Source: Escherichia coli
GTDB taxonomy: Bacteria; Pseudomonadota; Gammaproteobacteria; Enterobacterales; Enterobacteriaceae
NCBI RefSeq assembly: GCF_044647545.1
Contig: NZ_CP172818.1
DNA length: 64,000 nucleotides
Direction: 5' to 3' (one strand)
A model generated the notes under the pieces. That model did not search any database, was not told the origin of the DNA, and saw nothing but the letters and a program-made list of their open reading frames with translations. Shown piece by piece: positions 37,330 through 39,526 of the stretch. How positions within the stretch are numbered: the first letter of the stretch is position 1; every line of letters begins with the position of its first letter. Position numbers and translations under genes: made by a program.

Positions 37330-38691
37330 ATGACCACACCCTCAGATTTGAACATTTACCAACTGATTGACACCCAAAACGGTCGGGTCACTCCGCGTAT
37401 TTATACCGACCCGGACATTTACCAACTGGAGCTTGAGCGCATTTTCGGTCGTTGCTGGCTATTTCTCGCCCACGAAAGCCAGATCCCAAAACCCGGTGAT
37501 TTCTTTAACACCTACATGGGAGAAGATGCGGTTGTCGTGGTGCGCCAGAAAGACGGCAGCATCAAGGCGTTTCTCAACCAATGCCGCCACCGGGCCATGC
37601 GTGTGAGTTATGCAGATTGCGGCAACACGCGCGCCTTTACCTGCCCGTATCACGGCTGGTCTTATGGCATTAACGGCGAGTTGATCGATGTACCGCTGGA
37701 ACCTCGCGCCTACCCACAAGGGTTGTGTAAATCCCACTGGGGACTAAACGAAGTTCCTTGTGTGGAGAGTTATAAAGGGCTGATTTTTGGCAACTGGGAT
37801 ACCAGCGCACCGGGCCTGCGTGATTACCTTGGTGACATTGCCTGGTATCTGGATGGCATGCTGGATCGTCGCGAAGGCGGCACCGAAATTGTCGGCGGCG
37901 TACAAAAGTGGGTGATCAACTGCAACTGGAAATTCCCGGCAGAGCAGTTCGCCAGTGACCAGTATCATGCTCTGTTCAGCCATGCTTCTGCCGTTCAGGT
38001 ATTAGGGGCGAAAGATGATGGCAGCGATAAGCGTCTCGGTGATGGACAAACTGCCCGCCCGGTGTGGGAAACCGCCAAAGATGCGCTGCAGTTTGGTCAG
38101 GACGGTCACGGCAGCGGTTTCTTCTTTACTGAAAAACCGGATGCTAATGTCTGGGTCGATGGCGCAGTTTCAAGCTATTACCGAGAAACCTATGCCGAAG
38201 CAGAACAACGTTTAGGTGAAGTTCGCGCCCTGCGCCTGGCGGGTCATAACAATATTTTCCCCACGCTTTCATGGCTCAACGGCACTGCCACGCTCCGCGT
38301 CTGGCATCCGCGCGGCCCTGATCAAGTCGAAGTGTGGGCGTTCTGTATTACTGACAAAGCCGCCTCCGATGAAGTTAAAGCTGCTTTTGAAAACAGCGCC
38401 ACTCGTGCTTTTGGTCCTGCTGGTTTTCTCGAGCAGGATGACTCGGAGAACTGGTGTGAAATCCAGAAATTGCTTAAAGGCCACCGCGCCCGCAACAGCA
38501 AACTGTGTCTGGAAATGGGGCTTGGTCAGGAAAAGCACCGCGACGACGGCATTCCTGGCATTACTAACTATATCTTTTCAGAAACTGCCGCTCGTGGAAT
38601 GTACCAACGCTGGGCCGATCTTCTGAGTAGCGAAAGCTGGCAGGAAGTGCTCGATAAAACCGCCGCTTACCAGCAGGAGGTGATGAAATGA
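37330..38691 (+). CDS. hcaE: 3-phenylpropionate/cinnamate dioxygenase alpha subunit (Rieske)
   Basis: 453 aa; Rieske motif [26 protein letters not shown]. Confidence 0.93.
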
Positions 38692-39206
38692 GTGCGCAAG
38701 TTTCACTGGAGTTACATCACCGCATTAGCCAGTTTCTCTTTCACGAAGCCAGTCTGCTGGATGACTGGAAATTTCGTGACTGGCTGGCACAGCTCGACGA
38801 AGAGATTCGTTACACCATGCGCACCACAGTTAACGCGCAAACACGCGACCGCCGCAAAGGCGTCCAGCCGCCGACGACCTGGATTTTCAATGACACCAAA
38901 GACCAGCTGGAACGGCGAATCGCCCGTCTGGAAACGGGTATGGCCTGGGCAGAAGAACCGCCGTCACGCACCCGTCACTTAATCAGCAACTGCCAGGTAA
39001 GTGAAACCGACATCCCAAACGTATTTGCTGTGCGGGTAAATTATCTGCTTTATCGGGCACAAAAAGAGCGCGATGAAGCGTTCTATGTCGGGACTCGTTT
39101 TGACAAAGTTCGCCGTCTGGAAGATGACAACTGGCGCTTGCTGGAACGGGATATCGTCCTGGATCAAGCGGTGATCACTTCCCATAACCTGAGTGTACTG
39201 TTCTGA
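38688..39206 (+). CDS. hcaF: 3-phenylpropionate/cinnamate dioxygenase beta subunit
   Basis: 172 aa; ATGA start/stop overlap with hcaE. Confidence 0.93.
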
Positions 39207-39526
39207 TGAATCGAATTTATGCGTGTCCCGTTGCGGATGTGCCGGAGGGTGAGGCTCTCCGGATCGATACCTCGCCCGTCATCGCCCTGTTCAACGTAGG
39301 CGGCGAGTTTTATGCCATTAACGATCGTTGCAGCCATGGTAATGCGTCGATGTCAGAAGGGTATCTGGAAGATGACGCCACGGTGGAGTGCCCGCTGCAC
39401 GCCGCCAGTTTTTGCCTGAAAACGGGGAAAGCATTATGCCTGCCCGCCACCGATCCGCTAACCACTTATCCAGTACACGTTGAAGGTGGTGACATCTTCA
39501 TCGACTTACCGGAGGCGCAGCCATGA
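39206..39526 (+). CDS. hcaC: 3-phenylpropionate dioxygenase ferredoxin component (Rieske)
   Basis: 106 aa; [11 protein letters not shown]...CPLHAASF Rieske ligands; 1-nt overlap with the hcaF stop. Confidence 0.9.

Follow-up and report, generated by a model that had tools for sequence, protein, structure and literature searches.

The DNA window analysed here is a stretch of 64,000 nucleotides (nt) of Escherichia coli (assembly GCF_044647545.1, contig NZ_CP172818.1), which carries the hca genes for 3-phenylpropionate/cinnamate dioxygenase and, further on, the qseG and glrR genes of the QseE/QseF system. At several junctions in these two groups the stop codon of one gene overlaps the start codon of the next, and the present analysis concerns these overlaps and what they may mean for translation. 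The gene order reads csiE (plus strand), hcaT and hcaR (both minus), then hcaE, hcaF, hcaC, hcaB, hcaD and yphA (all plus), followed further on by glnB, glrR, qseG, qseE and glmY (all minus); the hcaEFCBD order, with the divergent hcaR and the adjacent hcaT, is therefore present in the window. Positions 37300-41600 are 100% identical to several E. coli chromosomes, and the RefSeq coding sequences of strain MS6198, from der to qseE, match the window exactly, a single timP copy out of the strain's two excepted. K-12 MG1655 agrees in its genes and in their relative boundaries, the junction boundaries used here being those of both the RefSeq/PGAP annotation of MS6198 and the K-12 MG1655 annotation. 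Ten open reading frames (ORFs) were translated and none shows an internal stop. Both the hca and the qseG/glrR pairs are co-directional ORFs on the same strand, and their polycistronic transcripts are taken from published operon listings. The hca features are as follows.

37330-38691, plus strand: hcaE, alpha (Rieske oxygenase) subunit of 3-phenylpropionate/cinnamate dioxygenase, 453 amino acids (ORF, RefSeq, NCBIfam, Pfam)
38688-38691, plus strand: overlap of the hcaE stop and the hcaF start, ATGA, spacing -4 (sequence, ORF translation)
38688-39206, plus strand: hcaF, beta subunit, 172 amino acids (NCBIfam NF042947, PDB 8k0a chain B)
39204-39208, plus strand: overlap of the hcaF stop and the hcaC start, TGATG, spacing -1 (sequence, ORF translation)
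39206-39526, plus strand: hcaC, Rieske-type ferredoxin, 106 amino acids (NCBIfam NF007422, conserved N-terminus)
39523-39526, plus strand: overlap of the hcaC stop and the hcaB start, ATGA, spacing -4 (sequence, ORF translation)
39523-40335, plus strand: hcaB, dihydrodiol dehydrogenase of the SDR family, 270 amino acids (NCBIfam NF042950, conserved N-terminus)
40345-41547, plus strand: hcaD, ferredoxin reductase (ORF, Pfam reductase domains)

HcaE matches the NCBIfam equivalog NF042946 with 947.8 bits (cut-off 830) and contains the Pfam Rieske and Ring_hydroxyl_A domains. HcaF scores 308.6 bits against NF042947 (cut-off 230), with residues 3-172 on profile positions 2-172, and aligns over residues 1-172 to residues 1-172 of PDB 8k0a chain B (E = 5e-114). 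HcaE and HcaF are hence subunits of one hetero-oligomeric oxygenase with a solved complex (8k0a); the solved 3-phenylpropionate dioxygenase entries, 8k0a and 9l1w, hold six beta chains in two entries, a count that together with knowledge of the family suggests an alpha3beta3 stoichiometry. For HcaC the score is 188.2 bits against NF007422 (cut-off 113; residues 1-106 on profile positions 1-105) and for HcaB 498.1 bits against NF042950 (cut-off 450; residues 1-268 on positions 1-268).

The first-pass annotation had reported that hcaE and hcaF share an ATGA, that hcaF and hcaC overlap by 1 nt and that hcaC and hcaB overlap by 4 nt, and the coordinates bear this out. The hcaE stop TGA occupies 38689-38691 and the hcaF ATG 38688-38690; the hcaF stop TGA lies at 39204-39206 and the hcaC ATG at 39206-39208; the hcaC stop TGA is found at 39524-39526 and the hcaB ATG at 39523-39525. 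The resulting spacings, -4, -1 and -4, are all within the range of about -8 to +6 that is treated as predictive of coupling. The fourth junction, hcaB/hcaD, has no overlap and serves as the comparison junction of the operon: hcaD begins 9 nt past the hcaB stop, and a Shine-Dalgarno (SD) sequence, AAGGAAG at 40334-40340, lies in and around this spacer. It should be noted that the bare motifs are uninformative, because both are so frequent in the window, where ATGA occurs 184 and 259 times on the two strands (443 in total) and TGATG 96 and 155 times (251 in total). What is informative is that long ORFs backed by homology terminate and start on these motifs, and that the spacing has stayed tight across 75-80 orthologous operons, which is not chance. 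Overlaps are found in 4 of the 36 co-directional neighbour pairs of the window, close to the E. coli background.

An overlap is only as good as the start codon that defines it, and the first-pass annotation had itself pointed out that alternative starts could remove the overlaps. In-frame ATG, GTG and TTG codons near each junction were therefore enumerated, in the window and in 80 related loci, and none removes any overlap. Were the overlaps an annotation artefact, with one or more downstream genes beginning at a later codon, the best candidate would be an in-frame GTG 33 nt downstream of the hcaC ATG (spacing +32), the sole alternative for that gene; gene-start prediction is, moreover, in general wrong for a noticeable share of genes. 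Each flagged ATG is, however, the first possible start of its own ORF, and hcaF has no other in-frame start within 45 nt, the next one lying tens of codons downstream. The residues that precede any alternative start are conserved as protein across bacterial classes: HcaC begins, from Met1, with M-x-[RK]-I-[FY]-x-C in gamma-, beta- and alphaproteobacteria alike, HcaB keeps M-[SG]-[DW]-L-...-ITGGGSGLG from Met1 up to the TGGGSGLG motif over the same classes, and HcaF reads MS..VSLELHH in enterics and Acinetobacter. These residues also align to positions 1-2 of the curated equivalog profiles, with scores above the cut-offs. In GlrR, whose receiver domain runs from residue 9, the ATG keeps a constant distance to the [HR]KPAxLLLVDDD receiver motif in five genera. 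Given the conserved N-termini, the profile alignments starting at position 1-2 and the alignment of HcaF with the solved chain 8k0a_B from residue 1 onward, the overlaps are real; judged by these comparisons the downstream start codons at the flagged junctions are authentic, and an artefact of annotation is barely credible.

To characterize the spacing in orthologous operons, one genome per species was scanned with HcaE, which yielded 80 loci (protein identity 60-100%) in Enterobacteriaceae, Photorhabdus, Acinetobacter, Pseudomonas, Azomonas, Burkholderiaceae, Alcaligenaceae, several alphaproteobacteria and one metagenome-assembled genome of Acidobacteriota. The hcaE/hcaF tally covers the 80 loci, and the hcaF/hcaC and hcaC/hcaB tallies 75 of them. 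Starts in the orthologues were chosen with SD weighting, and both the nearest-start and the SD-weighted tallies were reported; taking simply the start nearest to the E. coli N-terminus was abandoned as a rule, as it wrongly picked downstream GTGs for hcaF in Paraburkholderia, Acinetobacter and others with longer N-termini.

The E-F-C-B-D order is kept in 72 of the 80 loci. The hcaE/hcaF spacing is -4 in 67 and -8 in 10 (mainly alphaproteobacteria), with -13, -1 and +2 once each, and the two genes overlap in 79 of 80. Between hcaF and hcaC the spacing is -1 in 49 and +2 in 16 (together 65/75), and between hcaC and hcaB it is -4 in 27, +2 in 26, -1 in 19 and +3 in one (73/75 together), with switches of the hcaC/hcaB configuration inside the genera Citrobacter, Photorhabdus and Paraburkholderia. 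The hcaB/hcaD junction, taken as control, behaves differently: its +9 spacing is found in most enteric loci, with 10-13 nt in Entomohabitans and Shimwellia, while outside the enterics values between -4 and +171 occur, or a gene of about 1 kb intervenes. Tight spacing is thus kept at the three hca junctions more than at the control, and that the former stay tight while the latter drifts argues for proximity being selected at exactly the three flagged junctions. Selection for coupling, unlike neutral drift, would predict just such a pattern, with proximity preserved and the precise geometry changing.

Two side observations belong to these loci. The gene of about 1 kb between hcaB and hcaD is mhpB, 3-carboxyethylcatechol 2,3-dioxygenase (NF009910, 366.8 bits), present at this place in Acinetobacter, Photorhabdus and several alpha- and betaproteobacteria (e.g. 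loci L063, L041, L015 and L071); in E. coli mhpB is in a separate locus. In Citrobacter youngae (L009) a single change from ATGA to ATGC at hcaE/hcaF removes the hcaE stop and extends HcaE by three codons to a TAG, giving a 13-nt overlap, a natural example of the -4 layout mutating.

Concerning the recruitment of ribosomes, the three overlapping starts differ markedly. Two of them have an SD sequence inside the upstream gene.

38675-38683, plus strand: SD for hcaF, AGGAGGTGA, within the last hcaE codons, 4 nt upstream of the ATG (anti-SD duplex, conservation)
39511-39515, plus strand: SD for hcaB, GGAGG, inside the hcaC 3' end, 7 nt upstream of the ATG (anti-SD duplex, conservation)

The hcaF duplex, at -11.6 kcal/mol, surpasses in strength those of all other genes mapped in the window (46 in all), and an SD core (GGAG, GAGG or AGGA) is found upstream of hcaF in all 80 loci; for hcaB the duplex amounts to -9.5 kcal/mol and the core is present in 71 of 75. 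Upstream of hcaC (39185-39208) there is no usable SD, the duplex reaching just -3.1 kcal/mol, and the core is present in 2 of 75 loci and absent from 73. Where hcaC has been displaced, to +9 in Shimwellia or to +24 in Diaphorobacter, GGAG or GAGGGGGAAGG appears in the spacer; in three further displaced cases no obvious SD was seen in the spacer. A simple reason for its absence may be that the conserved C-terminus of HcaF (HNLSVLF) offers no space for an SD. The almost constant lack of an SD makes hcaC the best candidate for true termination-reinitiation coupling.

Coupling could also be brought about by unfolding of the RNA, the upstream ribosome opening a sequestered downstream site at which new 30S subunits initiate, a mechanism documented for other E. 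coli pairs. The hcaF start lends this some appeal, since unfolding its initiation region would cost 15.3 kcal/mol against a window median of 9.7, and GGUGAUG, which shares bases with the 3' part of the SD, is paired in the minimum-free-energy fold with CAUCACC 27 nt downstream. When the segments from -70 to +40 around the four starts (the three of hca and that of glrR) were compared with dinucleotide shuffles, however, no excess stability was found (z = +0.04, -0.93, -0.09 and +0.29), the stem-forming 5' coding sequence of hcaF shows no conservation in Citrobacter, Photorhabdus or Acinetobacter, and hcaC has no SD to unmask. Unfolding is therefore a very improbable basis for coupling here, and special RNA structure as the foundation of the junctions was discarded, the folds being indistinguishable in energy from those of the shuffles.

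The qseG/glrR pair lies on the minus strand.

56950-57663, minus strand: qseG (yfhG), outer-membrane lipoprotein of the QseE/QseF system, 237 amino acids (Pfam PF13942, E = 8.8e-81; RefSeq)
55626-56960, minus strand: glrR (qseF), sigma-54-dependent response regulator, 444 amino acids (Pfam Response_reg and Sigma54_activat)
56950-56960, minus strand: overlap of the qseG stop and the glrR start, ATGAGCCATAA, spacing -11 (sequence, ORF translation)
56970-56973, minus strand: SD-like GAGG for glrR, inside qseG, 9 nt upstream of the ATG (sequence, duplex)

The 11-nt overlap that had been proposed for this pair is indeed there, with the glrR ATG at 56960-56958 and the qseG stop TAA at 56952-56950. 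Its spacing falls outside -8 to +6, which weakens the case for this pair, although partial coupling would still be compatible with it. The glrR SD duplex is -6.3 kcal/mol, about the window median; the upstream sequence GATGAGGT is conserved in Salmonella and Citrobacter koseri, and Klebsiella oxytoca has GGAGGT. The spacing is -11 in E. coli, -4 (ATGA) in Salmonella enterica and C. koseri (where the ATA start given by the gene caller is displaced by one codon) and, in K. oxytoca and Enterobacter, -14. The overlap is thus kept in five genera without its length being conserved; the 120 QseG matches listed include no Yersinia, Proteus or similar genera. The glrR ATG and the upstream GAGG are fixed, and the length varies because the QseG C-terminal tail drifts while the ATG stays put. 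Among operons with longer overlaps (-8, -11, -14), qseG/glrR is found in the tail of the same distribution as the short ones, with an overlap conserved across Enterobacteriaceae; it differs from the short-overlap pairs in lying outside the -8 to +6 class and in the variable length of its overlap. The qseEGF genes form an operon with its promoter upstream of qseE (PMC6075780).

Beside this junction, the 164-nt spacer between qseE and qseG (57664-57827, minus strand) folds into one long imperfect hairpin of -64.9 kcal/mol with nested inverted repeats. By megablast an E. coli genome has its sequence at 2 places in the median and at 3 places at most, a second copy is not present in the window, and the region bears no annotated feature in K-12 MG1655, MS6198 or the listed matches. 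Elsewhere qseE and qseG are spaced by +1 (Salmonella), -4 (Enterobacter), +17 (K. oxytoca) and +23 nt (C. koseri), and E. coli appears to carry an inserted palindromic intergenic repeat that would have broken a tight qseE/qseG junction, with the qseG/glrR overlap kept.

The overlaps as such are already known, from the K-12 reference annotation and from a published genome-wide catalogue of potentially coupled pairs. Of the 2,987 co-directional pairs of E. coli K-12, 707 (24%) are spaced by -8 to +6, the commonest value being -4, followed by -1 and -8, with a secondary peak at +9 to +12 (PMC10666635), into which the +9 of hcaB/hcaD falls. The supplement of Huber et al. 2023 lists hcaEFCBD as an operon transcript, with hcaE/hcaF at -4 (complex: yes), hcaF/hcaC at -1 (complex: yes), hcaC/hcaB at -4 and hcaB/hcaD at +9, as well as qseG/glrR at -11 and glrK/qseG at +164 (PMC10666635). 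For the orthologous group pair COG4638@COG5517, i.e. HcaE@HcaF, the median distance over 444 genomes is -1, with a second value of -4 that is apparently the lower quartile (PMC10666635). Overlaps of -4 and -1 are an accepted sequence signature of termination-reinitiation coupling (PMC6728339, PMC10666635, PMC12548453), for which a 15-nt stretch of the upstream gene is enough and which decays over about 20 nt and disappears when the spacing grows by about 20-40 nt (PMC10666635). Four of five native E. coli ATGA pairs examined are coupled, the SD usually contributing (PMC6728339). Overlapping and tight pairs are 4.5-fold enriched for subunits of heteromeric complexes (PMC10666635), and the presence of HcaE and HcaF in one solved oxygenase (8k0a) fits this enrichment.

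Among known systems, the coupled ATGA pairs hyfHI, astDB, ydbH/ynbE as well as menDH (PMC6728339, PMC10666635) share with the hca ATGA pairs the geometry, the intragenic SD and the polycistronic mRNA, and their class is enriched for subunits of one complex, a feature also common to the hca pairs; coupling has been experimentally shown there, whereas the hca and qseG/glrR pairs are catalogued only, and bioBF shows that geometry is insufficient. The trpE/trpD pair (Oppenheim and Yanofsky, as given in PMC12548453) has the same -1, TGATG-type overlap as hcaF/hcaC and likewise joins components of one enzyme system, but in trp the coupling is genetically demonstrated, while for hcaF/hcaC geometry, SD absence and conservation point to it. 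A tight or overlapping alpha-to-beta junction is normal in Rieske ring-hydroxylating dioxygenases, of which hcaE/hcaF is a typical member without any difference. Nothing specific was found in the literature on coupling in hca or Rieske dioxygenase operons.

Taken at the level of sequence criteria, the three hca junctions belong to the termination-reinitiation coupled class. The first-pass annotation had called all the co-directional overlaps signatures of translational coupling; this is reasonable for hca, on account of spacing and conservation, and weaker for qseG/glrR at -11, and we infer from these features, in both cases, the coupling itself. Overall, for these canonical short overlaps in two polycistronic operons, hcaEFCBD and glrK(qseE)-qseG-glrR(qseF), termination-reinitiation coupling is the most likely function, and we regard it as probable. 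A ribosome that terminates at the upstream stop would be retained and would restart at the overlapping or abutting start codon, so that synthesis of the downstream protein would be linked to synthesis of its upstream neighbour. How strong the coupling is probably varies from one junction to another. From hcaF to hcaC, with TGATG and no SD in nearly all genomes, translation would be largely dependent on reinitiation; from hcaE to hcaF and from hcaC to hcaB, with ATGA and strong internal SDs, SD-assisted reinitiation is probably accompanied by some independent initiation (leaky coupling); and from qseG to glrR coupling is probably only partial, with independent initiation from the SD of glrR itself. 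Coupling at hcaE/hcaF may help to match the alpha and beta subunits of the hetero-oligomeric oxygenase.

Several points weigh against coupling, and most of them speak for the view that the overlaps are a neutral by-product of compaction, an ATG needing only a following A to provide a TGA, with downstream genes translated independently from their own SDs and no regulatory role. The strong SDs of hcaF and hcaB (-11.6 and -9.5 kcal/mol) would also allow independent initiation, and that of glrR is average. The bioBF pair initiates de novo at an ATGA overlap, with no coupling (PMC6728339), and the -4 layout is mutationally easy to reach and keep, which partly explains its abundance (PMC12548453); part of its persistence may for this reason be neutral. 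The folding z-scores detect no local RNA structure that would block independent initiation at the four junctions. In the literature covered, which did not include the original hca paper of Diaz et al. 1998, no published experiment on the hca or qseG/glrR junctions was found. The -11 of qseG/glrR is not within the -8 to +6 window to which Huber et al. 2023 assign predictive value, and in a synthetic-operon series coupling falls progressively as the overlap lengthens from -4 to -25 (cited in PMC12548453). Per-cell proteomic counts quoted by Göpel and Görke are 36 for QseF and 11 for QseG (PMC6075780), a ratio above 1 with which ribosomes coming from qseG are hardly the sole source for glrR. Complementation of a qseG deletion in trans is complete, and a qseG-3xFLAG allele in the chromosome loses no function (PMC6075780), hence the native junction is not a strict requirement for glrR expression. 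The translation of glrR would then depend on that of qseG at most partly.

For the hca junctions the neutral view meets a number of difficulties. HcaC is an obligatory electron-transfer component whose gene lacks an SD in 73 of 75 loci, and therefore needs some other means of ribosome recruitment, and an SD shows up in the spacer where hcaC is displaced. The spacing stays within about -13 to +3 in 87-99% of loci (79/80, 65/75 and 73/75) while hcaB/hcaD drifts or splits, and -4, -1 and +2 are swapped within genera without the genes ever separating. Four of the five tested E. coli ATGA pairs are, moreover, coupled. A purely neutral origin is on balance unlikely, although it deserves more consideration than unfolding or misannotation, and termination-reinitiation coupling is retained as the preferred explanation.

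The first-pass annotation had also listed a convergent overlap of 9 nt between csiE and hcaT, which is likewise present.

33733-35013, plus strand: csiE (ORF)
35005-36144, minus strand: hcaT (ORF)
35005-35013, both strands: convergent 3'-end overlap of csiE and hcaT, TCAGCATGA, 9 nt (sequence, RefSeq annotations)

The csiE TGA lies at 35011-35013, and the hcaT TGA reads as TCA at 35005-35007 on the plus strand. Where the two genes adjoin elsewhere, they again overlap tail to tail, by -9 in a further E. coli, by -6 in a Citrobacter and by -4 in both Kluyvera and Pseudocitrobacter. There is no terminator between csiE and hcaT, nor room for one between the genes, and the overlap implies that the 3' ends of the transcripts overlap, each ending inside the other gene; two weak terminator-like matches inside hcaT were set aside as not above chance. 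This overlap has no bearing on translational coupling, and none had been claimed for it.

A few other features of the window deserve mention. Two near-abutting junctions that were absent from the first list are found on the minus strand, in the region of 15994-15999 and 25573-25579: yfhM to pbpC (TAAATG, 0-nt spacing, where the pbpC SD duplex of +0.4 kcal/mol amounts to none) and hscA to fdx (TAATATG, spacing +1). The iroK frame (K-12 b4706; 21 amino acids, 36304-36369, minus strand) lies in frame within the 3' end of hcaR and has one amino-acid difference, ...LACVTA versus ...LASVTA. Rfam matches in the window comprise one ryfA (22474-22778), one IS128 small RNA (22138-22338), GlmY (59350-59497, minus), iscRS (30025-30134, minus) and sroE (9269-9360, minus). 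In strain MS6198 a timP/ryfA segment is duplicated, together with an sseB fragment, the extra genes not being found in the window, and upstream of der this strain has a sinH/sinI adhesin island, whose genes were not found in the window either (1-4557). The hca cluster region (37300-41600) is present in 4,375 of 5,426 complete E. coli genomes, about 19% being without it.

In bacterial operons no junction type is commoner than the short stop/start overlap, and the finding mostly confirms a sound annotation. In the case of qseG it carries a practical consequence, as tags or deletions at the 3' end of this gene touch the glrR start and its SD. Beyond this, hcaC may be a conserved natural case of SD-independent, obligatory reinitiation, with ferredoxin synthesis slaved to, and capped by, the translation of the beta subunit. 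The basis for this reading, which we advance only tentatively, is that 73 of 75 genomes, drawn from three proteobacterial classes, lack an SD here, together with the start at -1 or +2 and the SD seen in wider spacers; the apparent break of qseE/qseG by the 164-nt palindromic repeat in E. coli only, with the qseG/glrR overlap kept, is a side observation that seems to point toward it as well. Since hcaC has no ribosome-binding site of its own, the hcaF-hcaC junction should, in any re-engineering or heterologous expression of hca, be kept intact, or else hcaC be given such a site.

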